DNA from: Escherichia phage JH2 | DNA length: 64,000 nucleotides | Strand: one strand, 5' to 3' | Sequence record: KF055347 | Shown here: positions 11,617-50,987 of the stretch, in pieces | How the letters are laid out: each line of letters starts with the position of its first letter | Position numbering within the stretch: position 1 is the first letter of the stretch | Translations under genes and position numbers: made by a program | The notes under the pieces: model-generated | What the model saw: only the letters and a program-made list of their open reading frames with translations | Told to the model about the DNA's origin: nothing | Databases searched by the model: none

Positions 11617-11873
11617 GTAAGCCTCTTTTAAGTAACTATTAAGTTTTAATCTTTTATCTTAACGTATTCTATACGTTATACTTTAAAGCTTTTTAAAAGC
11701 TATTAAATAATCTTTTAAGAGTTTTAAAGTATCTGTATAGTTAAACTGTTAAGTAACCTTTTAAGTAAAAACCCACTTCGCAAAGATTAACACCTTGTCA
11801 AGTACATTGTCAACTTGCTTTTTATAATTTTTTGCAGTAATGTATGTGGTTAATGATTTTAGAGGGAGTAAAA

Positions 11874-14016
11874 ATGGAAAACGTAGATTTTAAAAACTTA
11901 CATTTAGTTGGCGATACAGAAACTGATGGTTTACTCCTTGAGTTCACTAAAGTGCACGTAATGGCTTTCGCAGACTATAAATCTGACGATGAAGAGCCAC
12001 CTGTATGGGTCTTTACAGATGAGCCTATCCTCGGCCACAAGTATACCAAGTACATTAAAGGTGGTTTGCGTGAAGGTGTCGAGTTTGCGTTAAAGGCAAA
12101 ACGGCTTTGCATCCATAATGGTCTGGGGTATGACTGGTGGGTTTTCAATCACATTGCACCTGATTTGTGGAACTTTGATAATCCAAAGTGTAAACCGTGG
12201 AGTAATTTCTTTCAGGATTCTCTTATCCAGTCTCGTGTTCAGTGGATGGATAGACCAACTCCAAAGGGTTATAAAGGTGCTCATGGTTTGGCTGCATGGG
12301 GTGCTCGTGTTGGTGTACGTAAACCAGAGATTGAACATTGGGGTGTGTGGAATGCAGAAATCTTCACTCGTGTTGTAGAAGATATCCGTATTAACGCCAA
12401 AACTAAACGTGCACTGGATAATGAATATCTCAAGCTGAAGAAGTGTGGCGTAGATACTTATGAAACCTACATGCGAGCTAAAGAAACATCTTTCTGGATG
12501 AGTCAACAAGCTATCAATGGTTGGAAAGCTGATAAAGAACTTATGGAGTTCCATGTAAAGGAACTTGACAAGTTGACTAATGAGCTTGCTTCAGAAGTTG
12601 AACCACATCTTCCTCCAACTATTAAGACCAAAGGTAAAGTCACTGGAGAAGAGTTTGCAAAAGCTTGGAATGAGTATGTTGAAGCATTCGGTCATGCAGA
12701 TGGACTGAAGAGAATTACCAAGTACCCTAAGACAAAGTATCGTCAGCAGGTACGTAACGGTGAGATGCAGACATATGAAATTAAGCCATTTGGTAAGCCA
12801 ACTACAAAGATTTTTAACATTGAAAAGCGGAATTGCTATACACCAACCAACTCTGTAACTGGTGAAGAGTACAAGGAAGGTTTTGTAGCAATGAAGGATG
12901 CTCGTGCAATTTGCAATGAGTTGAATGCAAAGATTGGTAAGAAATGCAAAGACTGGAAGCCAGTAAAAACAGTTAAAACTGTGAAGTACTATAACAGTCA
13001 TGTTGTGAACCACTTTGAGCTTGAGTCAAGTCGCTACACAGGTTTGATTGATGCACCATATACACCAATTGAGTTTGAAGTTTCTCGAATGACTCAGGTG
13101 GCTGTTGTGAAGGACTACTTGAAATCAGTTGGTTGGATTCCTGATGACTGGAACTATAAGAAAGACTCTGATGGTCGTCCTGTTAAGGTTTGTCGTTTCA
13201 AAGACAACAAAAAGATGATTACCAAACATCCTAAATGGGATGAGATGGTTGAACGGTGCGGTTTGAGTTATGTTGAACATGAAGGTGTACAGTACATTGA
13301 GCATAACTGGTCTGTTAAGAAGTACACAGATTTGCTTGAACCTTGCTTAATCCGTACTTCACCAAAACTTACTGAATCATCTTATGATACGATTGAAGGT
13401 GAGCTTGGGCAGAAGATTGCAAAATACTATACCTTGATGCACAGACGCAGAACTATTGAGAACTCAAAGGATGATGAAAAAGGTTGGTTAAACCAGATTC
13501 GTCCTGATGGTCGCCTTAGTGCTGGTGCAATGGTGTTTGGTACTTCAACTGGACGTATGACACAATATGGTATTGTAAACGTACCGTCTGGCGCTGCTGT
13601 CTATGGAGCACCCATGAGGGAAGTTTGGACTTGTGAAGAGGGTACTAATATTGTTTCAGCCGACATGAATAGCGCCCAACTTGTGCTGCTGTGTAACTTT
13701 ATGGGTGATAAAGATTTCACTAAAGCGGTGACAGAGGGTAAAGAAGAGGTTGAGTTTGTCAAACAAGAGGATGGTAGATACTATTGCAAACATTTTAACC
13801 AGTATCTAAACCCAGCTATTGACAAGTATTTACATTATGATTCTGAAAATGACTTATACGTGGTGTACTCAGGGACTGATGCACATACTTTAAACAGTAT
13901 CTACTTCAGCCTTAATAAAGAGGAAGACATCTTGACATGTCGAGCTACTCAGGATGCAAATCTTCTTCAAGAAATTAGTAAAGGCCGTAAGAAAGCCAAA
14001 AATGGCATTTATGCGT
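11874..14016 (+). CDS. DNA polymerase, family A (T7 gp5-like), exon 1
   Basis: ATG at 11874 after AGGGAGTAAAA; Exo I DTETDG and Exo II HNGLGYD motifs; ends in ...RKKAKNGIYA (motif B region, T7 RDNAKTFIYG). Exon boundary inferred from P1 pairing. Confidence 0.85.
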
Positions 14017-14818
14017 CAGTGGCGCATGTAAAACGTTGTGAATTGCTGGAAGCCTAAGTCTGTAAAGATATGGTAATCAGCAGCGAAGTCTCTGTTAGGA
14101 CTCCTAAAACAAAGGAGAGAGACAATGGCAGGTTACGAAGAGAGATTATGCACTGAGTGTGGTACGGAGTTTAAACCATATCAATACAATCAGAAACGGT
14201 GCAGAAGTTGTGTATTAAAGTTTGACAGAAGGGCAGAACACAGGGTTCTTACTAAGAAATGCCCTAGTTGTGAGAAGGTGTTCATGCCGAGAACAGCAAG
14301 GCAAGTTTATTGTTCGTCACATTGCGGTGAGAAAGGTAGAGTTAAGAATTACTACCTAAGAACATATGGATTGGAAAGAGAAGAGGTTGAGTCTCTACTC
14401 CGTGACTGTGATTACAAATGTCAAATTTGTGGCGGCGAAGGTTTTATCATGAATGGTTCACGACACAAGGCTAAACTTGTTGTTGACCATGACCATAAAA
14501 CCGGAAAGGTAAGAGGTATGTTATGCCACAATTGCAACAGAGCTTTGGGGTTGCTTGCAGATAGTGTTGATAACATGCAAAGAGCGATTGACTATCTAAG
14601 CAAATGATATAACTATAGAGATTCCTAACAGAGAAACGTTCAGAGACTATCGAAAAGCATACTTAACGTATGAACTGAGTAGAGTAGGGTGGTAAGCTAA
14701 TGACCATCCCCAAGTGCAACGGTAGCATCACTGCTACGTGATATAGTCCGACACTCCGTAGAAATGCGGAGAAGTTCATAAGAGAACTGGTACACCTTGC
14801 GAGTGTATTGACCAGATG
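14017..14818 (+). mobile_element. group I intron in the DNA polymerase gene, carrying an HNH endonuclease ORF
   Basis: Exon end ATGCGT (14011-14016) pairs with intron GCGCAT (14022-14027) across a 5-nt loop with U.G at the splice site (P1); proposed 3' end is G at 14818; splicing restores ...NGIYALLFGAGDEK... colinear with T7 ...FIYGFLYGAGDEK. Confidence 0.6.
14125..14607 (+). CDS. HNH homing endonuclease (intron-encoded)
   Basis: Strong RBS AAAGGAGAGAG; Cys-rich N-terminus and HNH core VVDHDHKTGKVRGMLCHNCNRALG. Confidence 0.85.
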   Translation: MAGYEERLCTECGTEFKPYQYNQKRCRSCVLKFDRRAEHRVLTKKCPSCEKVFMPRTARQVYCSSHCGEKGRVKNYYLRTYGLEREEVESLLRDCDYKCQICGGEGFIMNGSRHKAKLVVDHDHKTGKVRGMLCHNCNRALGLLADSVDNMQRAIDYLSK

Positions 14819-15375
14819 TATTGTTCGGGGCTGGCGATGAGAAATTTGCTAAGACGATTAAAGCATCTACAACTGAGGAAGGTGCTTTAACTAAGCAAAC
14901 ATACTTTGTACGTCTCCCTAAAATTAAGAAGTTGATAGATAATTTAGAAGCAGACTTCAAAGCCACTAAGAAGGCTCTTGAAGAGGTATTTGGTAAGACT
15001 GCCGCAATCTCTAAAGGGGGGTTTGTAAAGGTTGCTGGAGCTTGGTTGTGGTGTAAATCTCCACATAAGTTATTGAATTATTTGCTTATGGGTTCGGAAA
15101 GTCAGGTTCAGAATGAAGCCATCAACCTCGCTTGTAGAAGAACTTGTGAAGAGGGTCTTACAAAGTTGAATGGTCGAAAACCAGCTATTGGCGCTAGATT
15201 GCTTTTAGCATATCACGATGAGAATAGTTGGGAGTGTCCAGAAGACATGACGCAGGATGTTAAAGCAGTAATTGACTGGATGTATGGTCAAGCATCAAGA
15301 AATTTAGGGCTTAAGGAGGAAACTCTCGTAACTGGCACTGGTAAAGTTGGTAAAAATTGGCTTGAGGTACACTGA
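14819..15375 (+). CDS. DNA polymerase, family A, exon 2
   Basis: Begins ...LFGAGDEKFAKTIK and contains YHDE (motif C); matches the T7 gp5 C-terminal region; no independent ATG start. Confidence 0.8.
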
Positions 15376-15436
15376 TTAGTATTGACAAGGTGCTCATGGA
15401 AGAGTACCTTATACAATATCTTATATAGGAGGTCAC

Positions 15437-15655
15437 ATGACGCTTTCAGAGATTGAAGTTCAGTTGCAATGTGCAGGTTATTCTCAAAAAGAGATTGAAG
15501 GGATGTTTATTGTTCTTTGCAGTAGCTGTAGGAATTTGAAGGTAAAACCTGAAGTTCTACGTAGAGTCGATATCTTTATTGCTGGAGGCAAAATCGCAAA
15601 AGATAAGACGGGTTACTTAAAAGGTGAGCGTGTAAACATTGAGACTTTACTATGA
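15437..15655 (+). CDS. hypothetical protein (paralog of 15858..16070)
   Basis: GGAGGT RBS; C-terminal IFIAGGKIAKDKTGYLKGERVNIE parallels IIIVDGKIARDRTGVLKGERISID in the downstream paralog. Confidence 0.5.
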   Translation: MTLSEIEVQLQCAGYSQKEIEGMFIVLCSSCRNLKVKPEVLRRVDIFIAGGKIAKDKTGYLKGERVNIETLL

Positions 15656-15861
15656 GCCACCGTGGAAGAACCCATGCAGCAATGATGAAAGGTGCTTCAA
15701 AGGAAACTATCAAGAATCGTAAACAGAAGTTGTTTGAGAGGATGAACAGGTTAATTGACAATTCATCTCTTTCAGGTTCTGAGAAGGTTTTCTTGAAAGG
15801 TAATCTGAAAAGCATTGCACAAGAACTTATTGACATTGAGTATTGGAGACACCAAAAATGA
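15652..15861 (+). CDS. hypothetical protein
   Basis: 69 aa ORF; start overlaps upstream stop (ATGA). Confidence 0.4.
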   Translation: MSHRGRTHAAMMKGASKETIKNRKQKLFERMNRLIDNSSLSGSEKVFLKGNLKSIAQELIDIEYWRHQK

Positions 15862-16070
15862 CACTTGCAGACGTTATTCAGCAACTTCACAACAACTGCT
15901 ACACTCCAGAGTTGATTCAGGAGATGCTCATTGTAGTAATACCTAGTAAGTTCGTAAAAGGTTTTAATCGTGACTCCTTAATGTCTGCACATATCATTAT
16001 TGTTGACGGTAAGATTGCAAGAGACCGTACAGGAGTCCTTAAGGGTGAACGTATTAGCATTGACATCTGA
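15858..16070 (+). CDS. hypothetical protein (paralog of 15437..15655)
   Basis: ORF trimmed to ATG after TTGGAGACACCAAAA. Confidence 0.45.
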   Translation: MTLADVIQQLHNNCYTPELIQEMLIVVIPSKFVKGFNRDSLMSAHIIIVDGKIARDRTGVLKGERISIDI

Positions 16071-45900: not shown

Positions 45901-45976
45901 TGGAGAATCCGAAGGGACTCGAACCCTTATAAACCTGTTTTGCAGACAGGCACATATCCATTTCTGTCACGGATTC
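45901..45976 (-). tRNA. tRNA-Cys (anticodon GCA)
   Basis: Cloverleaf read by eye: CCA encoded, T-arm AAGGG/CCCTT with TTCGAGT loop, anticodon loop CUGCAAA, acceptor 7 bp. Confidence 0.7.
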
Positions 45977-45980
45977 AAAT

Positions 45981-46073
45981 TGGAGGAAGATACCAGACTT
46001 GAACTGGTACACCGATTTCTCAGCTACTGGCAGTTTAGCAAACTGCTCCCTTACCTTTTAGGGTTAATCTTCC
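45981..46073 (-). tRNA. tRNA-Ser (anticodon GCT), long variable arm
   Basis: T-arm ACCAG/CTGGT, anticodon arm GCAGT-UUGCUAA-ACUGC, ~21-nt variable arm, perfect 7-bp acceptor. Confidence 0.7.
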
Positions 46074-46074
46074 A

Positions 46075-46809
46075 TTATTTCTGTAATGCGTTCTTCATTT
46101 CTGGTGTTGCAATAGTGTCAATCACACCAGTTTTACAAGCATCATCAAACCAGTCTGGTAAGATACCTGCTAAGAACCCATTGATATTCGTTTTAAGGTA
46201 CTCTGCAATAAGGGCAGCTTCTTCTTCAATCATCTGCACAACTTCATCTGCATAAGCTGTAATCTTTGAGATACCTTCATTAATCTTGCTAACAGCTTGG
46301 TTAGCTAAATCAGAAATAGTATCAAGACCTTCATCAATAGCATCTTGTAAGTCACTTAATACACCATTAACACCATCTAGTGCGCTGTTAATTGTGTCAA
46401 TAGCTTTTTGACCATACTCTGTAGCAACACCCATAATACCACTAAATGGTGTACAACCGACTTGCTCTCCTGCTGCACCCATAACATTGGAATACCCCTT
46501 TGCTACCTGCATACGTGATGAAAACTCATCAATAGACTTTTGACCATAGTCTGTTAGGGTCTTAGTAGTTGCTGTAGTGCTTGTAAGGCTTGTTGTAAAG
46601 CTGTTTAGAAGGGCTGTTGTGAGTCCAGCAGCAACAAGTTTATCCTTTATTGTAGGGTCTGCTACAGAGCTAATAGAGCTTACAAGTGATGTAGAGGCAG
46701 CTACGGTTCCACCGAGAACTGCTGCACCAGTAATAAGGGGATTAGAAAACCCTCTACCGGTTTTTAAGAGATTAAAAATCTCCTTACCTTGTTCTGTCAT
46801 CTCTTTCAT
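46075..46809 (-). CDS. hypothetical Ala/Ser/Thr-rich protein embedded in tRNA array
   Basis: ORF trimmed to MKEMTEQ... after AAAGGTG to avoid overlapping the upstream tRNA. Confidence 0.5.
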   Translation of the reverse strand: MKEMTEQGKEIFNLLKTGRGFSNPLITGAAVLGGTVAASTSLVSSISSVADPTIKDKLVAAGLTTALLNSFTTSLTSTTATTKTLTDYGQKSIDEFSSRMQVAKGYSNVMGAAGEQVGCTPFSGIMGVATEYGQKAIDTINSALDGVNGVLSDLQDAIDEGLDTISDLANQAVSKINEGISKITAYADEVVQMIEEEAALIAEYLKTNINGFLAGILPDWFDDACKTGVIDTIATPEMKNALQK

Positions 46810-46825
46810 TAAGCACCTTTGAAAT

Positions 46826-46902
46826 TGGTAGTCCAGTGGGATTTGAACCCTCTTCTCATGTTTTTCAGACACGCGCTTTAACCATATAAGCTACTTGGAC
46901 TG
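46826..46902 (-). tRNA. tRNA-Phe (anticodon GAA)
   Basis: Anticodon arm CGUGU-CUGAAAA-ACAUG; T-loop UUCAAAU; T-stem and acceptor each carry one mismatch, ends approximate. Confidence 0.6.
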
Positions 46903-46907
46903 TAAAT

Positions 46908-46983
46908 TGGGGTGACCTACGGGATTTGAACCCGTATAGACCATGTTCACAGCATGGGTCATTACCTTTTATGATAAGGCCAC
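46908..46983 (-). tRNA. tRNA-His (anticodon GTG)
   Basis: Perfect T-arm ACGGG/CCCGU, anticodon loop with GUG, 76 nt. Confidence 0.7.
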
Positions 46984-47014
46984 ATTTAAGGACTCTCGTA
47001 AGAACCCTTAGAAG

Positions 47015-47090
47015 TGGCAGCGGCATAAGGATTTGAACCTTAATAAGACAGCTTCAGAGACTGCTGCATTGCCAGTTATGCTATACCGCT
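47015..47090 (-). tRNA. tRNA-Gln (anticodon CTG)
   Basis: T-arm TAAGG/CCTTA, D-arm GCAT/ATGC, anticodon stem with two G.U pairs, loop CUCUGAA. Confidence 0.6.
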
Positions 47091-47095
47091 AAATT

Positions 47096-47174
47096 TGGTA
47101 CTCCATATCGGATTCGAACCGATACATAACACAGATTTTAAGTCTGGCCTCTCTGCCAATTGGAGTAATGGAGC
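47096..47174 (-). tRNA. tRNA-Leu (anticodon TAA), atypical short variable region
   Basis: Perfect T-arm; anticodon loop CUUAAAA; ~7-nt variable region instead of a long arm, so identity is tentative. Confidence 0.5.
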
Positions 47175-47176
47175 AT

Positions 47177-47252
47177 TGGCGGGGGATGTTGGAATTGAAC
47201 CAACTTCTTCGATTTCAAAGACCGAGGTTTTAACCTTGTAAACTAATCCCCT
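47177..47252 (-). tRNA. tRNA-Gln (anticodon TTG)
   Basis: Perfect T-arm GTTGG/CCAAC; anticodon loop CUUUGAA. Confidence 0.6.
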
Positions 47253-47260
47253 TTAAATCT

Positions 47261-47818
47261 TTACTTTCTCAGTGGATGAATAAAGAATGCCAACATAACT
47301 CTTTCCCTTGAGAATGCTCTTTCTTCTGGGACAACACTTTTTAGTTTCCACCCAACATAAATTCTCCAGTAAAATTGTTTACCAAAGACTTTGATTGATG
47401 GGACAAAAGCGAATAATCCCCAAGCATTGCTGTTCCACATTAGGAGATAACCAGTCTGATTATCTTCAGGGTCAGAACTTACGTTGATATTACCTTTCCA
47501 CTTAGTAACATCTTTTACATCTCTTCCTAATACATGGTAAGAGAAGTTATAAGCTTTGTTTCTCCAGAGCCATCCAACTCTCTGCAAATAGACACCAAGC
47601 TTACCAATCTTTCTAATCTTAGCCCATCGTTTAATGTGACCTTCATCACCATCAATAGGGTTGTCATATGTCTCCATCCATCTGAATCCAAAAGGTAGAT
47701 GTCCTTTCTTCTCACTATAGAATGGAACTACAAAAGGTGCTAAGATAACTGCTAAGGTTGCTGCCAATGGGTCTAACAAAGCTAGGAAAATCCATGAAGC
47801 ATACTTCAAATATCTCAT
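47261..47818 (-). CDS. hypothetical membrane protein embedded in tRNA array
   Basis: 185 aa, N-terminal TM helices (WIFLALLDPLAATLAVILAPFVVPF); AAGAGG RBS. Confidence 0.5.
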   Translation of the reverse strand: MRYLKYASWIFLALLDPLAATLAVILAPFVVPFYSEKKGHLPFGFRWMETYDNPIDGDEGHIKRWAKIRKIGKLGVYLQRVGWLWRNKAYNFSYHVLGRDVKDVTKWKGNINVSSDPEDNQTGYLLMWNSNAWGLFAFVPSIKVFGKQFYWRIYVGWKLKSVVPEERAFSRERVMLAFFIHPLRK

Positions 47819-47830
47819 TTAAATAGCCTC

Positions 47831-47906
47831 TTTAAATTGGTGCAGGATAAGGGATTCGAACCCCTATTAACAGCTTCGTAGACTGTTGCTCTATCCATTT
47901 GAACTA
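47831..47906 (-). tRNA. tRNA-Arg (anticodon ACG)
   Basis: T-arm with TTCGAAT loop; anticodon loop CUACGAA; acceptor 7 bp. Confidence 0.65.
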
Positions 47907-47911
47907 ATCCT

Positions 47912-47989
47912 GCAAAATTGGTGTTCCAAGACGGATTCGAACCGTCACTAATACAAGGTTTGAGCTTGCATCCTCTGCCAATTGGGATA
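47912..47989 (-). tRNA. tRNA-Leu (anticodon CAA), atypical short variable region
   Basis: Perfect T-arm GACGG/CCGTC; anticodon loop CUCAAAC; 78 nt without long extra arm. Confidence 0.5.
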
Positions 47990-47990
47990 C

Positions 47991-48065
47991 TGGAACGTGG
48001 TACTCACTAAAGGACTTGAACCTTTTTCTTCATCTTGTAAGGGTGATGTTTTACCATATAAACTA
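47991..48065 (-). tRNA. tRNA-Val (anticodon TAC)
   Basis: Perfect T-arm AAAGG/CCTTT; anticodon loop CUUACAA. Confidence 0.65.
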
Positions 48066-48160
48066 AGCGAGTATGAAAGAGGTCTGAAGTTGTGCCGCTA
48101 ACTCAACTCCGTGGAATTTGTTACGGTCTTCAGTTGACACCAGCGGTCTTTCACTTGACC

Positions 48161-48236
48161 TCTGAATTGGTGCTCCCACAAGGATTCGAACCCTGATAAG
48201 TTGCTTACAAGGCAACCGTAATAGCCAATTATACGA
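48161..48236 (-). tRNA. tRNA-Thr (anticodon TGT)
   Basis: Perfect anticodon stem GTTGC/GCAAC; loop CUUGUAA. Confidence 0.7.
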
Positions 48237-48243
48237 TAGGAGC

Positions 48244-48318
48244 ATTAATTTGGAGCATCCAGAGGGAATCGAACCCTCAACCTCAGTTTGGAAGACTGTA
48301 ATTTTCCCGTTTAAACTA
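48244..48318 (-). tRNA. tRNA-Gly (anticodon TCC)
   Basis: Perfect T-arm GAGGG/CCCTC and perfect acceptor GCATCCA/TGGATGC; anticodon loop CUUCCAA. Confidence 0.7.
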
Positions 48319-48324
48319 TGGATG

Positions 48325-48400
48325 CACTAATTGGTGGAGTCACTGAGAATTGAACTCAGTTCCCGAGTTTGCAAAACTCGAATTTTAACCATATAAACTA
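48325..48400 (-). tRNA. tRNA-Ala (anticodon TGC)
   Basis: Perfect T-arm CTGAG/CTCAG and anticodon stem CGAGT/ACTCG; loop UUUGCAA. Confidence 0.7.
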
Positions 48401-48406
48401 TGACCC

Positions 48407-48482
48407 CAATGTTTGGTGCAGGTGGAGGGAATTGAACCCATCGTCTTACTGATTAAGAGTCAGCCGCATAACCATTTTGCTA
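48407..48482 (-). tRNA. tRNA-Lys (anticodon CTT)
   Basis: Perfect acceptor GCAGGTG/CACCTGC; anticodon loop CUCUUAA; weak T-stem; paralog of the tRNA at 49729. Confidence 0.6.
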
Positions 48483-48489
48483 CACCTGC

Positions 48490-48567
48490 ATTAATTTGGT
48501 AGGAGACAAGGGATTCGAACCCTCAAACACCAACTTCTAAGGATGGTAGGTTTACCAATTACCGTCA
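48490..48567 (-). tRNA. tRNA-Leu (anticodon TAG), atypical
   Basis: T-arm AAGGG/CCCTC; anticodon loop CUUAGAA; acceptor pairing needs 2 extra nt near the D-arm; no long variable arm. Confidence 0.5.
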
Positions 48568-48829
48568 ATCTCCCATTAAATCTTTTTAGAGAACTTCTAA
48601 GAACCTAAGCAACAAGGTTCCACAACAAGCTGTAATAACCTTAGAAGCCCTCTAAAAAGACCTAAATTGGTCTTTGCATAGTCTTGTTTAATCCGGTGAC
48701 TAGAACCTTTGGAGAGCTTGATATTATCTCTTCTCCGTGACACCTACTAGGTGCTTTATCAGTGTGTACGACAATACACGAGGGATACCAAAGCAACATC
48801 CGAATGAAGCTTGGCTTTAAATCTTATTA

Positions 48830-48919
48830 GGCGGTAAGTAAAGGAGTCGAACCCTCACCGTATCTCTACAGTGGCAACAGTTTTCAAGACTGTTTGGCTG
48901 CCATTAGCCGCTACCTACC
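48830..48919 (-). tRNA. tRNA-Ser (anticodon TGA), long variable arm
   Basis: Perfect anticodon stem ACAGT/ACTGT with loop CUUGAAA; ~20-nt variable arm; CCA only partly encoded. Confidence 0.6.
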
Positions 48920-48932
48920 CCTAATAAGACTT

Positions 48933-49015
48933 TGGCATGGGACGGAGGAGTTGAACCCCTTTGAAACGGTTTTGGAGGCCGTTGCTCATGCCTTAGAGTC
49001 TTAACATCGTCCCAC
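48933..49015 (-). tRNA. tRNA-Trp (anticodon CCA), with ~7 extra nt between D-arm and acceptor
   Basis: Anticodon arm ACGGC-CUCCAAA-ACCGU; acceptor strands pair only if the gene is ~83 nt. Confidence 0.5.
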
Positions 49016-49157
49016 ACTATAATTCGAAGCTTACCGTATTTTCGCAACACTGTAAAGCCCCTTCTCAGATTATTTACATGTTCTGGAAAACATGAGATAC
49101 AGACCACCTCCTTACACGGAGACCCGATAAGGTCGTCTAAGCAATCTGCTAACTATT

Positions 49158-49234
49158 TGGCACACCCTACAGGATTCGAACCTGTAACTCAATGATTAGA
49201 AGTCATTTGCTCTGTCCAGTTGAACTAAGGGTGC
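49158..49234 (-). tRNA. tRNA-Arg (anticodon TCT)
   Basis: Perfect T-arm ACAGG/CCTGT and anticodon stem AATGA/TCATT; loop CUUCUAA. Confidence 0.7.
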
Positions 49235-49570
49235 ATTAATCTTTAAAGACTCTCTTAGAAAGCCCTTAAAGATGCCCACCTTATTAATCATACCGTGGGC
49301 GAGTACGCCAAATTCTTTGATGAGGGATTGGAAGACCTCACTGGTGTTTAGCCTATCAAGCTACTGCCAGAAAAACATTGTCGTTTGCATTTATTTTAAA
49401 TTTGCAAAATAGACGCTACGCAACGAAAACTATTCAGAATATGTACAACAAATTTCCCCACATTGTGTTACGTCTAACGCTCATGTATTGGTGTTTGAAT
49501 TATACATATTATGAAGTATTTTAGTTACTATAAAGTGGTCACATCTCAATGTCAACAACTTTATTGAAAT

Positions 49571-49645
49571 TGGTTGTAGGTGAGGGTATCGAACCCTCTT
49601 CTAACGGTTATCAGCCGTTTGCATTACCATTTATGCTAACCCACA
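49571..49645 (-). tRNA. tRNA-Ile (anticodon GAT)
   Basis: Perfect T-arm GAGGG/CCCTC and anticodon stem AACGG/CCGTT; loop CUGAUAA. Confidence 0.7.
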
Positions 49646-49647
49646 AT

Positions 49648-49724
49648 TGGAGGTTCAGATGGGAATCGAACCCACATTCATAGGGCTTATGAAACCCTTG
49701 CATTACCTTATCTGCGACTGAACC
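49648..49724 (-). tRNA. tRNA-Met (anticodon CAT)
   Basis: Perfect acceptor GGTTCAG/CTGAACC; anticodon loop UUCAUAA. Confidence 0.6.
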
Positions 49725-49728
49725 ATAT

Positions 49729-49804
49729 TGGTAGAAGTGGAGGGATTCGAACCCATCGCCTGTCAGATTAAAAGTCTGCCGCATCACCATTCTGCTACAC
49801 TTCC
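49729..49804 (-). tRNA. tRNA-Lys (anticodon TTT)
   Basis: Paralog of the tRNA at 48407 with the same atypical T-stem; anticodon loop CUUUUAA. Confidence 0.6.
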
Positions 49805-49810
49805 ATTAAA

Positions 49811-49950
49811 TTATCTTTGTAGATAAGCTACCCAGACTTGCTTAAGGTCTGTAGCGATGTGCTTTGTTGGGTTTAAATCTAGAATTTACCCTTTCACCCT
49901 TTGTGGTCGCATACTCACAGGTAAGCTTAATAACTTATCTACAAAGATAA
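49811..49950 (-). ncRNA. candidate structured ncRNA closed by a perfect 17-bp long-range stem
   Basis: TTATCTTTGTAGATAAG (49811-49827) is the exact reverse complement of CTTATCTACAAAGATAA (49934-49950), enclosing 106 nt with internal hairpins; no ORF or tRNA. Confidence 0.35.
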
Positions 49951-49953
49951 TTA

Positions 49954-50084
49954 CCAGACCGTTGTTTATCATCTTAAGTGCTACCATTACACCAACTCGA
50001 CATCTGCCGAGTGAAGGAATCGAACCTTCGCCTTTTCTTTACCGAGAAATAGATTGTTTAAGTTTTGCTGTAAACGGTCTTCTG
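49954..50084 (-). ncRNA. candidate Y RNA-like ncRNA with circularly permuted tRNA-like module (YrlA-type)
   Basis: Minus-strand RNA: closing stem CAGAAGACCGUU...AACGGUCUGG; internal canonical T-arm GAAGG-UUCGAUU-CCUUC; acceptor-like stem CUCGGC-AGAU-GUCGAG capped by a tetraloop; D-arm-like GUG-UAAUGGUAG-CAC; no anticodon arm. Confidence 0.45.
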
Positions 50085-50097
50085 TAAATTTGTTGAG

Positions 50098-50174
50098 CCA
50101 GACCAAGTTTTAAATTTTTTCAAAATTAAATTGGCTTGAAAATATCATACGTACTTGCTGAATTTGGTCTTCTG
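50098..50174 (-). ncRNA. structured intergenic element with the same closing stem (CCAGACC / GGTCTTCTG family)
   Basis: Terminal inverted repeat CCAGACCAA ... TTGGTCTTCTG as in the 49954-50084 element; AT-rich interior. Confidence 0.3.
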
Positions 50175-50261
50175 CTCCTTTAAAGAATACTCGTAAGAAC
50201 TCTTTAAGGGAGGGGCTAAATAGCCCTCTCAAAACATCATCTTGAAATACTTATTATAATT

Positions 50262-50339
50262 TGGCGGTTACGAAGGGATTTGAACCCTCATCATCTCCCG
50301 TGACAGGGGAGTATTTTAACCAGATTAAACTACATAACC
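50262..50339 (-). tRNA. tRNA-Asp (anticodon GTC)
   Basis: Perfect anticodon stem CTCCC/GGGAG; loop CUGUCAC. Confidence 0.65.
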
Positions 50340-50345
50340 TTTATT

Positions 50346-50433
50346 TGGTGTGCCGTGTAGGAGTCGAACCTACCGAGTCTCAATGACAAGGGATTTACAG
50401 TCCCCACCGCTACCATCTACGGGATAACGACAC
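50346..50433 (-). tRNA. tRNA-Tyr (anticodon GTA), long variable arm
   Basis: Perfect T-arm GTAGG/CCTAC; anticodon loop CUGUAAA; ~15-nt variable arm. Confidence 0.6.
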
Positions 50434-50493
50434 ATTTTATTTTCTATTCAGGCTAAGGACTTGCACCTTACAAATCGGTGAGCAATCGCTTCT

Positions 50494-50570
50494 CTCCTAA
50501 ATTTGGCGGTTAGTCAGGGATTCGAACCCTGTGCCATTCGCTTAACAGGCGACCGCACATACCTTATGTG
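50494..50570 (-). tRNA. tRNA-Asn (anticodon GTT)
   Basis: Perfect T-arm CAGGG/CCCTG; anticodon loop CUGUUAA. Confidence 0.65.
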
Positions 50571-50591
50571 CTTCCTAACCTTAATACATTG

Positions 50592-50651
50592 CCAGACCGT
50601 GTTTTTTCTTTTATCCGCAAAAAGTAGTTTGTTGCTGCATACGGTCTTCTG
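50592..50651 (-). ncRNA. structured intergenic element (CCAGACC / GGTCTTCTG family)
   Basis: GCCAGACCGT ... ACGGTCTTCTG terminal inverted repeat enclosing ~45 nt with an internal hairpin. Confidence 0.3.
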
Positions 50652-50657
50652 CAAAAT

Positions 50658-50733
50658 TGGAGGCGGGTGCAGGAGTCGAACCTGCCGATACCATGCTAAT
50701 GAGACATGTGAGACGCCCTTTCTCTATACCCGC
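50658..50733 (-). tRNA. tRNA with CAT anticodon (Met, initiator or Ile-lysidine type); unusual U37
   Basis: Perfect T-arm GCAGG/CCTGC, D-arm GAGA/TCTC, anticodon loop CUCAUUA. Confidence 0.5.
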
Positions 50734-50745
50734 AATTCTTAATGA

Positions 50746-50818
50746 CCAGACCAAATCTCTTCTTTGTCCGATTTATCTTCAGATGAATAAGATTAAGTTT
50801 GCTGTAATTGGTCTTCTG
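50746..50818 (-). ncRNA. structured intergenic element (CCAGACC / GGTCTTCTG family)
   Basis: CCAGACCAA ... TTGGTCTTCTG terminal inverted repeat as in the other three family members. Confidence 0.3.
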
Positions 50819-50825
50819 TCAAAAC

Positions 50826-50903
50826 TGGCGTTCCAGAAGGGATTTGAACCCTCAAATATCCACTTTGAAAGAGTGGTGACTTTACCATTTTGTCTACTGG
50901 AAC
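50826..50903 (-). tRNA. tRNA-Glu (anticodon TTC)
   Basis: Perfect anticodon stem CCACT/AGTGG with loop CUUUCAA; perfect acceptor GTTCCAG/CTGGAAC. Confidence 0.65.
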
Positions 50904-50910
50904 ATTAATT

Positions 50911-50987
50911 TGGTCTCTGTTGGAGGACTTGAACCTCCGGCCTTACCGCCCCAAACGGAACGCTCTACCAAGCTGAGCTAAACAGAG
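50911..50987 (-). tRNA. tRNA-Pro (anticodon TGG)
   Basis: Perfect T-arm GGAGG/CCTCC and perfect acceptor; anticodon loop UUUGGGG. Confidence 0.65.

Follow-up and report, generated by a model that had tools for sequence, protein, structure and literature searches.

A group I intron encoding an Endo VII-motif nuclease in the family A DNA polymerase gene of Escherichia phage JH2

Is the DNA polymerase of Escherichia phage JH2 (KF055347), a Felixounavirus member with 98.8% identity to Escherichia phage HK3, encoded by one gene or by two? In the stretch of 64,000 nucleotides analyzed here (the window), an insert of 802 nt that carries a nuclease gene interrupts the family A DNA polymerase gene, with boundaries at 14016/14017 and 14818/14819. 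A first-pass annotation had proposed a group I intron with an HNH endonuclease, splitting a T7-like DNA polymerase gene. Of the label "T7-like", only the assignment to family A holds, and the enzyme is of the Felix O1 type.

Reading frames of the split polymerase gene

Exon 1 of the polymerase gene (11844..14016, + strand) was delimited from the ORF list and Pfam DNA_pol_A, taking the first ATG of the ORF as an uncertain start. The uninterrupted genes of wV8, FO1a, LF82P5 and Michonne run colinear with this exon, which ends in U14016, the opening position of a Leu codon divided by the insert. The upstream reading frame runs on past the exon (11844..14057) and terminates at TAA 14055-14057, just where the first-pass annotation had placed its stop. 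Exon 2 (14819..15375, + strand, stop codon included) is defined by Pfam DNA_pol_A and by the alignment of T7 polymerase across the junction. As the annotation had also read, its frame resumes without a start codon: it is open from 14812, directly after TGA 14809-14811, and lacks an ATG, the sole start candidate in the mechanical ORF list being TTG 14821.

Joining the exons after T14016 and G14818, the splice points predicted at the outset, yields a frame of 909 aa (...KNGIYALLFGAGDEKF...) with zero internal stops, which is colinear with T7 motif B and with the four uninterrupted genes, and, over the junction, aligns with residues 517-536 of T7 DNA polymerase. The predicted ligated junction reads ...UAUGCGU/UAUUGUUC..., where the slash marks the joint. 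It aligns with T7 G527/F528, between the residues matching Y526 and Y530 of the O-helix (motif B). By the standard T7/Klenow motif B correspondence, we take the T7 F528 codon to be about L764 of E. coli Pol I. A comparison with intron-less homologues, suggested in the first-pass annotation, revealed that the wV8, FO1a, LF82P5 and Michonne genes are uninterrupted exactly at the insertion point. The wV8-type allele reads ...ATCTATGCAC/TGCTGTTCGG... at this point, and the exon positions that form the P1 strand are occupied by other synonymous codons in the intron-less alleles.

Most GenBank records of these phages annotate two separate polymerase genes. Read literally, the annotation of "DNA polymerase (x2)" plus "endonuclease VII" describes two polymerase polypeptides of about 737 and about 184 aa, made with no splicing from genes that flank a free-standing nuclease gene, and TTG 14821 could in principle start the second of them. 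Against this reading, the break splits a codon midway along the O-helix, flanked by the residues aligned with T7 Y526 and Y530, uninterrupted alleles exist at exactly the same point, and neither an ATG nor a Shine-Dalgarno sequence was seen ahead of 14821. Moreover, the intervening non-coding RNA is 97-100% conserved, compared to 72-80% for the coding sequence, and is a member of the group I intron family RF00028, as described below. We thus leave two polypeptides hardly any probability.

An intein, or a different insertion excised from the translated protein, would likewise interrupt a conserved polymerase motif, but nothing further speaks for it. The polymerase frame stops at 14055-14057, only 13 codons into the insertion, the nuclease is read in a separate frame from a ribosome-binding site of its own, no frame runs unbroken through 14608-14811 into exon 2, and Pfam shows no intein domains. 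We give this alternative no weight at all.

Architecture and family membership of the intron

The group I intron spans 14017..14818 (802 nt), as defined by partial Rfam matches, ORF-less siblings in related phages, helix mapping and pair counts; all its features lie on the + strand. The 5′ splice site is part of P1 (14011..14027), a helix of 6 bp in which the exon strand AUGCGU (14011-14016) pairs with the internal guide GCGCAU (14022-14027) across the loop CAGUG, leaving a U14016-G14022 wobble at the splice site. This helix, with its loop of five nucleotides and U.G pair, is the one first recognized from the DNA letters (ATGCGT and GCGCAT, loop CAGTG), and it shows no variation among the intron-containing alleles examined. 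P10, absent from the first-pass annotation, was found here: the P1 loop CAGUG (14017-14021) forms 5 bp with the start of exon 2, UAUUG (14819-14823). The final intron nucleotide is G14818, the terminal omega G.

The 5′ half of the core (14034..14100), assigned from the Rfam matches, ORF-less siblings, helix map and pair counts, begins with the 5′ strand of P3 (14034-14040) and J3/4 AAU. These are followed by P4 (14044-14049 with 14077-14082), P5 (14053-14056 with 14069-14073, with U14071 bulged) and the 5′ strands of P6 (14083-14084) and P6a (14089-14100). The 3′ strands of P6a (14623-14634, from the helix map) and P6 (14638-14639), lying within 14623..14639, close a stem that loops out the ORF. 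The next segment (14640..14748) comprises J6/7 UCAGA, P7 (14645-14650 with 14743-14748), P7.1 (14658-14662 with 14668-14672), P7.2 (14687-14693 with 14703-14709), the 3′ strand of P3 (14715-14721), P8 (14722-14727 with 14732-14737) and J8/7. The 3′ end of the intron (14754..14818) consists of P9 (14754-14760 with 14765-14771, capped by a GAAA loop), P9.1 (14774-14777 with 14784-14787) and P9.2 (14788-14795 with 14803-14814), and then GAUG ending in G14818. Helix mapping of the 5′ half of the core revealed no evident P2, and the two hairpins at 14658-14672 and 14687-14709 separate the 5′ strand of P7 from the 3′ strand of P3. With P7.1 and P7.2 present and P2 absent, the JH2 intron is of the subgroup IA type, perhaps IA2-like. 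A scan within the intron found no sigma-70 promoter or intrinsic terminator.

The membership in RF00028, for which the gathering score is 50 bits, is less obvious from JH2 itself. The JH2 window gave only sub-threshold partial matches of 24.6 (P4-P6) and 14.9 bits, and a search of all 64 kb (gathering threshold; E <= 0.05) returned tRNAs and one sub-threshold intron fragment only. The score is low because the 483-nt ORF plus its leader sits in the P6a loop; the consensus strings of J6/7, P7 and P9 are present. ORF-less copies from Mushroom, IME338, SPJ41, REP9 and fBSPA4, which differ from the JH2 ribozyme at only 1-8 of 255 nt, score 59.9-62.3 bits with E values of about 1e-14. Thus, the Rfam comparison put forward as a check fails for JH2 taken alone and succeeds for its near-identical siblings; through these siblings and the helices mapped on JH2, the intron belongs to RF00028, and the expected P3-P9 core is present.

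Further analysis of the pairing revealed that all 16 helix segments (16/16) map on JH2 with standard pairs. The 85 pairs are 100% paired in six sequences, compared to 25-45% in a slid control with the 3′ partner shifted by 1-3 columns. Two compensatory changes were found, both from C-G to U-A: one in P6a, between the long and short forms of this helix, and one in P8. Covarying pairs are this few within the genus because the ribozyme is almost invariant. In a hand alignment of three intron lineages, the KBNP1711 and Yep-phi introns keep P3, P4, P5, P6a, P7.1, P7.2, P8 and P9 paired with differing sequences; P9 covaries over the three lineages, with a GNRA loop in each.

The intron-encoded nuclease and the proposed mechanism

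The nuclease gene (14125..14607, + strand; 483 nt, 160 aa) lies in the terminal loop of the extended P6a stem, which gives a precise place to the peripheral loop predicted earlier, and the strong ribosome-binding site then noted is AAGGAG, 7 nt upstream of the ATG. The product has CxxC zinc ribbons towards its N-terminus and, at the C-terminus, an Endo VII (DHHRN) catalytic motif, with CQIC at residues 98-101, DHDH at 121-124, R130, CHNC at 134-137 and N138. This order agrees with the published definition of the Endo VII motif (CX2-4C ... DHDH ... R ... CX2C-N) (PMC6083498). The ORF matches Pfam Endonuclease_7 (PF02945) with an E value of 1.1e-19, other Pfam matches being weak zinc-ribbon ones only, and PHROG 307 "endonuclease VII" with an E value of 3e-41. 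Among PDB structures, Hpy99I (E 1.5e-5) and T4 Endo VII (E 0.005) were matched, the motif being aligned with both, whereas no NCBIfam model matches the ORF. An identity as a canonical HNH enzyme of the I-HmuI type was rejected, since Pfam gives Endonuclease_7 and no HNH family match. The earlier call of an HNH endonuclease therefore survives as an intron-internal nuclease, of the Endo VII-motif kind; the Endo VII-motif and canonical HNH enzymes are different families of one beta-beta-alpha-metal superfamily (PMC6083498).

Compared to its orthologue in EC6, which is annotated as "DNA polymerase I" in GenBank, the nuclease shows a pN of 0.13 and a pS of 0.87; the ORF is intact and, judged from these values, under purifying selection. 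In the 5′ leader of the gene (14101..14124, + strand), CUCCU (14101-14105) can pair with the Shine-Dalgarno segment AGGAG (14113-14117), and an alternative local pairing joins AGAGAC (14117-14122) to GUCUCU (14088-14093). The leader stem is retained in EC6 with a different loop. The fold of 14085-14135, at -12 kcal/mol, is not significant compared to shuffled sequences (z = -1.2). Such a small hairpin over the Shine-Dalgarno sequence may limit translation of the nuclease.

We propose, with a probability of roughly 93%, that 14017-14818 is a mobile group I intron that interrupts an O-helix codon of the Felixounavirus polymerase and carries an Endo VII-motif homing nuclease. This proposal builds on the anatomy, the RNA-family membership via the ORF-less copies, the exon colinearity and the purifying selection on ribozyme and nuclease alike, all of them observed. 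In the proposed process, the transcript would fold into the P3-P9 core, and an exogenous guanosine would attack after U14016, which is positioned in P1 by the guide GCGCAU. The released exon 1 would then attack after G14818, with exon 2 aligned via P10, and the ligated mRNA would be translated into a single polymerase of 909 aa. In a mixed infection, the 160-aa nuclease would presumably cleave polymerase alleles that lack the intron, close to the insertion site, upon which recombinational repair would copy the intron into the cut allele. Indirect evidence for such homing comes from the presence or absence of the intron within the genus and from the purifying selection on the ORF.

Distribution in the genus and comparison with known systems

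The genus holds intron-less, ORF-less and ORF-containing states: the intron is present in about 95 phage records, of which about 39 also have the ORF, and absent from roughly 80. Compared to EC6, the ribozyme parts of JH2 are identical at 84/84 positions on the 14034..14100 side and at 190/196 positions in the other part, whereas identity falls to 76-80% in the exon flanks and to 72.6% in the ORF. Among the Felixounavirus copies, only 1-9 of the 255 ribozyme nucleotides differ, whereas between the same phages synonymous sites are saturated in the polymerase 3′ region (about 13613-15375) and the intron nuclease gene. The ribozyme is under purifying selection. As a separate observation, a weak similarity to Staphylococcus phage SEP9 falls just upstream of the annotated endolysin gene of that phage and not within a polymerase gene.

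Might the intron be impaired, either dependent on a protein cofactor from host or phage or decaying and tolerated at some cost, so that it self-splices inefficiently and its nuclease is inactive in homing? The ORF has been lost in many relatives, the ORF-less copies of the Mushroom type keep the last ORF codons as a deletion scar, and the nuclease ORF of the KBNP1711 relative appears frameshifted. In JH2, by contrast, the nuclease reading frame is unbroken and shows purifying selection, and the ribozyme core, which hardly varies within the genus, retains every consensus element. Moreover, the polymerase is presumably essential for replication, so that the exons must be joined. An impaired intron accordingly appears very unlikely.

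We also considered that the ORF-less intron is tied to a free-standing HNH-AP2 nuclease gene, akin to the "collaborative homing" of S-PM2 psbA, but this does not hold as a simple rule. Such a gene directly follows the polymerase gene in IME338 and Mushroom; it is also found with the intron-less alleles of Alf5, LMP33, adrianh and dune, and beside the ORF-containing intron of PC79-13.

The JH2 intron is a real but ordinary mobile element: GenBank contains nearly identical copies, and the ORF has already been called intron-encoded for its EC6 orthologue (PMC6083498). These results will hardly surprise specialists. Their value lies in annotation, where one spliced polymerase gene with a mobile intron should replace two polymerase genes plus "endonuclease VII" in phages that are widely used for biocontrol and typing. 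In addition, a genus with all states of the element would be well suited to work on homing by Endo VII-motif nucleases, which have received little study.

The introns of EC6, FSL SP-010, JH2, SPJ41, Mushroom and Meda, the last three of these ORF-less, are one element at one site. Fang et al. 2018 (PMC6083498) list the EC6 ORF product AFU62407, with 79% protein identity to the JH2 nuclease, as intron-encoded. For Meda, an intron without the ORF has been described in the polymerase gene (PMC6486253), and for SPJ41, two Rfam "introns" at an unstated location (PMC9951933). No introns were reported when the Felix O1 genome was first described (PMC3185647), in line with the FO1a allele, which lacks the intron. 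Among the Felixounavirus copies, JH2 is distinguished by an HK3-type nuclease allele (99% to HK3) and a divergent exon allele of its own. The literature searched contained no experiment that demonstrates splicing or nuclease activity in this intron family.

Two more distant relatives also sit in motif B. The intron of Berlinvirus (Yersinia phage Berlin / Yep-phi) likewise interrupts a family A polymerase gene and encodes an Endo VII-motif nuclease, with 51% identity over residues 44-159; the Berlin ORF has been called intron-encoded (PMC6083498). The Yep-phi intron shares the architecture and the strings GACUAU, GAUAUAGUC and GUUCAUAAGAGAAC with that of JH2, whereas the helix sequences differ throughout, the polymerase is a T7-type podovirus enzyme and the insertion lies 11 nt upstream (T7 F524 codon), with splice sites read from colinearity and P1. 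The intron of KBNP1711 (Escherichia phage, Gordonclarkvirinae) is 84% identical to JH2 across P3-P5, gives partial RF00028 matches of 34.7 and 48.1 bits, and also loops its ORF out from P6a. It differs in having a P2 hairpin, an insertion read as 6 nt downstream (T7 Y530 codon) and an ORF of an unrelated canonical HNH type that appears frameshifted.

As read here, three staggered intron sites (Berlinvirus -11, Felixounavirus 0 and KBNP1711 +6 nt) fall within 17 nt of O-helix coding sequence, in three unrelated phage groups with different nucleases. One tentative reading, to which we give somewhat less than even odds, is that the ribozyme halves evolve or spread separately from the nuclease gene and the exons, a single lineage having reached all three O-helix sites. 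If so, the intron-less, ORF-less and ORF-containing alleles of the genus, together with the free-standing nuclease gene at the end of the polymerase gene, would form a natural test series bearing on the assembly of mobile introns and the exchange of nuclease cassettes.

Family A polymerase genes are also interrupted in SPO1, SP82, Bastille and Pf-WMP3 (I-HmuI, I-HmuII, I-BasI and I-PfoP3I) and in PhiI/W31 (I-TslI). These introns are self-splicing group I introns, lie in highly conserved coding segments and encode beta-beta-alpha-metal nucleases. Their insertion sites, that of PhiI/W31 included, are given as E. coli Pol I positions 674, 676 and 881, not about 764, with SPO1, SP82 and Bastille at 674 and phiL7 at 676 (PMC3428280). 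An assignment of the JH2 intron to the SPO1 type was rejected, since its site is at about 764 and not at 674. The likeness to SPO1-type polymerase introns drawn at first thus stands as an analogy, which extends neither to the site nor to the nuclease family: the nucleases of the introns just named are canonical HNH nicking enzymes (PMC3428280), whereas that of JH2 has the Endo VII motif. The O-helix site (about E. coli L764) is a further position beside those tabulated earlier for polymerase introns, at E. coli Pol I 674, 676 and 881 (PMC3428280).

The nuclease itself resembles in design F-CphI of cyanophage S-PM2, the founding DHHRN homing endonuclease, which has the same catalytic motif and the same domain order with a C-terminal Endo VII motif. 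S-PM2 g49 (F-CphI) is 33% identical over 96% of the JH2 ORF, and the JH2 nuclease has every one of the catalytic residues (D, H, R and N) that were altered by mutation in F-CphI (PMC6083498). They differ in their setting: F-CphI is free-standing beside an ORF-less psbA intron and acts by "collaborative homing", whereas the JH2 gene lies within its intron.

The intron of the DNA polymerase gene

The polymerase gene is represented by two plus-strand ORFs, namely the N-terminal part of a family A enzyme (11844..14057) and the C-terminal part (14821..15375), between which lies a nuclease ORF (14125..14607), as assigned from the ORF list and Pfam. As described in the first-pass annotation, the upstream frame is terminated by TAA at 14055-14057 and the downstream frame is open from 14812 without an ATG, and the nuclease ATG at 14125 is preceded at 7 nt by AAGGAG. 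Splicing after T14016 and G14818, which that annotation had proposed, joins T14016 to T14819 and yields a 909-aa frame with zero internal stops that reads ...GRKKAKNGIYALLFGAGDEKF... and aligns without a gap to residues 517-536 of T7 DNA polymerase, TRDNAKTFIYGFLYGAGDEK. An intein is ruled out by the reading frames. The P1 helix was likewise recovered, with ATGCGT (14011-14016) pairing to GCGCAT (14022-14027) and a U14016-G14022 wobble at the proposed splice site. Moreover, the five-nucleotide P1 loop CAGUG is complementary to exon 2 nucleotides 1-5 (UAUUG), forming a P10 helix, which is independent support for the 3' splice site.

With the spliced junction as an artificial 600-nt query, many Felixounavirus and Mooglevirus genomes gave a single uninterrupted match. 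The alleles of wV8, FO1a (Felix O1), LF82P5 and Michonne are continuous across the predicted junction, and encode the same residues by other synonymous codons (GCA C/TG CTG versus GCG T/TA TTG in the window, the slash marking the junction). The 2010 paper on Felix O1 reported no introns (PMC3185647), which fits the intron-less FO1a allele of species Felixounavirus felixO1.

Rfam search of the window alone gave 24.6 bits to P4-P6 (14044-14134) and a second match of 14.9 bits that holds the GUUCAGAGACUA and GAUAUAGUC consensus strings; these scores are weak because of the inserted ORF. Five ORF-less copies, differing from the window by 1-8 nt in the 255-nt ribozyme, scored 59.9-62.3 bits on RF00028 (E ~1e-14), against a gathering score of 50, so that membership of the group I family was established via these siblings.

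A complete secondary structure could be placed on the plus strand of the window using standard pairs only. It consists of P1, P3 (14034-14040/14715-14721), P4 (14044-14049/14077-14082), P5 (14053-14056/14069-14073, with U14071 bulged), P6 (14083-14084/14638-14639), P6a (14089-14100/14623-14634), P7 (14645-14650/14743-14748), P7.1 (14658-14662/14668-14672), P7.2 (14687-14693/14703-14709), P8 (14722-14727/14732-14737), P9 (14754-14760/14765-14771, closed by a GAAA loop), P9.1 (14774-14777/14784-14787), P9.2 (14788-14795/14803-14814) and the terminal G14818. P2 is absent from this map, and the presence of P7.1 and P7.2 places the intron in subgroup IA. All 85 pairs are intact in six of six sequences, compared to 25-45% when the 3' partner is shifted by one to three columns. 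The near-invariance of the ribozyme leaves little covariation within the genus: two C-G to U-A compensatory changes (P6a and P8), and in P7.2 a single change from G-C to G-U. In a hand alignment, the introns of phages KBNP1711 and Yep-phi have P3, P4, P5, P6a, P7.1, P7.2, P8 and P9 in the same order, formed by different yet complementary sequences.

Comparison of the window with phage EC6 showed 78.5% and 80.0% identity in the 150-nt exon flanks and 72.6% in the nuclease ORF, whereas the ribozyme is identical at 84 of 84 positions (14017-14100) and 190 of 196 (14623-14818). Such non-coding sequence, far better conserved than the coding sequence, is unlike a spacer that separates neighbouring genes. 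Most GenBank records annotate two polymerase subunits and an intervening nuclease gene, a reading that is very improbable; the O-helix would be cut in the middle of a codon, and the second part has neither an ATG nor an evident ribosome-binding site. Altogether, the intron-less alleles, the RNA family, the helix map and the non-coding conservation indicate that the element is a group I intron, as the first-pass annotation had concluded. A crippled or cofactor-dependent intron fits poorly with a near-invariant core in a presumably essential gene.

The element is already known, with near-identical copies in dozens of GenBank genomes, most of which still show two polymerase genes. In 2018 an orthologous ORF was described as intron-encoded (PMC6083498); published work also notes a polymerase intron lacking the ORF in phage Meda (PMC6486253) and, for SPJ41, introns detected with Rfam whose location is not stated (PMC9951933). 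The literature searched contained no experiment that demonstrates splicing or homing in this intron family.

The intron-borne nuclease

The nuclease ORF sits in the loop of the 12-bp P6a. It had been annotated as an HNH endonuclease, of which the intron-borne nuclease stands and the canonical HNH identity was rejected: Pfam assigned Endonuclease_7 (PF02945, E 1.1e-19), PHROGs matched 'endonuclease VII' families, and among solved structures the restriction enzyme Hpy99I and T4 endonuclease VII come closest. The product contains the complete motif CX2C ... DHDH ... R ... CX2C-N, which defines the DHHRN homing endonuclease family of Fang et al. 2018, founded on F-CphI of cyanophage S-PM2 (PMC6083498). 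S-PM2 g49 is 33% identical to the window protein over 96% of its length. EC6 AFU62407, one of four myovirus sequences termed 'intron-encoded' in that study (PMC6083498), is an orthologue with 79% protein identity. A pN of 0.13 against a pS of 0.87 between the two ORFs indicates purifying selection on the protein. In the EC6 GenBank record (segment L009:263-745, AFU62407.1), the nuclease is labelled 'DNA polymerase I, 3'-5' exonuclease and polymerase domains' and both polymerase exons are labelled hypothetical proteins, an error that may propagate. The closest relatives outside the genus are polymerase-intron ORFs of Yersinia T7-like phages, such as Yep-phi (51% identity).

Upstream of the ORF, CUCCU (14101-14105) is complementary to the Shine-Dalgarno sequence AGGAG (14113-14117), and the stem is retained in EC6 with a different loop. 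Judging from phage intron nucleases such as T4 I-TevI, this hairpin may restrain translation of the nuclease; as its fold showed no significance against shuffles, the restraint is suggested by that analogy.

Alleles, mosaic ages and neighbourhood

Over the intron region, Escherichia phage HK3 shares 98.8% identity with the window, and ~15 further listed phage records share 93-98%; all are from Felixounavirus (Felix O1-like myophages). Approximately 177 phage-collection records match the spliced exons, ~95 with the intron and ~39 of these with the ORF, counts that are approximate and include duplicate GenBank/RefSeq records. Searching with the ORF-deleted intron revealed two ORF-less forms, of 311 nt (Mushroom, EC106, Tf, NJ12) and 267-268 nt (IME338, SPJ41, REP9, fBSPA4 and many others). 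In the window the ORF cassette is flanked by a 7-bp inverted repeat, GUUAGGA/UCCUAAC, that lengthens P6a; the P6a of the 268-nt form has just 4-5 bp. The 311-nt form retains the final ORF codons, ..GCAAATAA (Mushroom, L005:251-290 versus window 14101-14622), and from its sequence seems to have arisen by deletion between short CTAA(A) direct repeats, with CTAAA 5' and CTAAG 3' of the cassette.

Pairwise comparison of the window, EC6, IME338, Mushroom and intron-less wV8 showed 95-98% identity from 12217 to ~13613 (13616), the part of the gene compared upstream, and 75-85% (one pair 94%) from there to the polymerase stop at 15375, a hypervariable patch whose synonymous sites are saturated or nearly so. 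Within this patch, the 255-nt ribozyme differs by only 1-9 nt among six intron-containing relatives. Its common ancestor is therefore far younger than those of its flanking exons and of the nuclease gene it encloses, unless the ribozyme is being homogenised. This age mismatch is not explained by ordinary homing with co-conversion alone.

In many relatives, among them Mushroom, IME338, Alf5, LMP33 and PC79-13, the polymerase gene is followed immediately, or overlapped at its end, by a free-standing gene for an HNH-AP2 homing nuclease (L015:2829-3357, L016:2855-3391). Its insertion point corresponds to window 15378/15382 (15376-15382), where the window lacks it. The gene accompanies all three kinds of polymerase allele (intron-less, ORF-less and ORF-containing), so that simple 'collaborative homing' is not supported and was rejected. 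The IME338 copy is apparently frameshifted.

Further downstream, the small ORFs 15437-15655 and 15843-16070 resemble paralogues (...GGKIAKDKTGYLKGERVNIE... versus ...DGKIARDRTGVLKGERISID...). Nothing in EC6, IME338 or wV8 corresponds to the stretch 15451-15857, and the window thus seems to hold an extra copy of the small ORF. Rfam search of the window also revealed a minus-strand cluster of 24 tRNA genes (45904-50987), one of which (48832-48919) is long, with a weak tRNA score (31 bits) and a sub-threshold tRNA-Sec match; for Felix O1 itself, 22 tRNAs were reported in 2010 (PMC3185647).

Insertion site and related introns

The intron is inserted after the first nucleotide of the codon aligned to T7 F528. 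In the standard alignment of motif B, T7 R518/K522/Y526/Y530 correspond to Klenow R754/K758/F762/Y766, which makes the site L764 of E. coli Pol I. Polymerase intron sites have been tabulated at 674 (SPO1, SP82, Bastille, Pf-WMP3), 676 (phiL7) and 881 (PhiI, W31) (PMC3428280), none of which is L764; the earlier comparison with SPO1-type introns therefore holds as an analogy, not as a shared site. In Staphylococcus phage SEP9, 70 nt (L011:2501-2570) are 78% identical to the P1-P5 part; this stretch, ~280 nt upstream of an annotated endolysin gene and overlapping a short hypothetical ORF, may by its sequence be another group I intron.

Of all these observations, only the mosaic ages and the stagger of the insertion sites might repay more work. 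The intron of Yep-phi (Berlinvirus; L013:1016-1695) is of the same lineage and lies ~11 nt upstream, in the T7 F524 codon; the end of its Endo VII-motif ORF overlaps the P6 and J6/7 region, and its RefSeq record joins both exons. The related group I intron in the polymerase gene of KBNP1711, a phiEco32-like podovirus (L012:1957-2740) whose record annotates two polymerase genes, lies ~6 nt downstream in the T7 Y530 codon, possesses a P2 hairpin and carries a different, apparently frameshifted HNH ORF in its P6a loop. With both positions read from colinearity and P1, these related introns would be inserted at three staggered points, all inside a 17-nt stretch of the sequence that encodes the O-helix.
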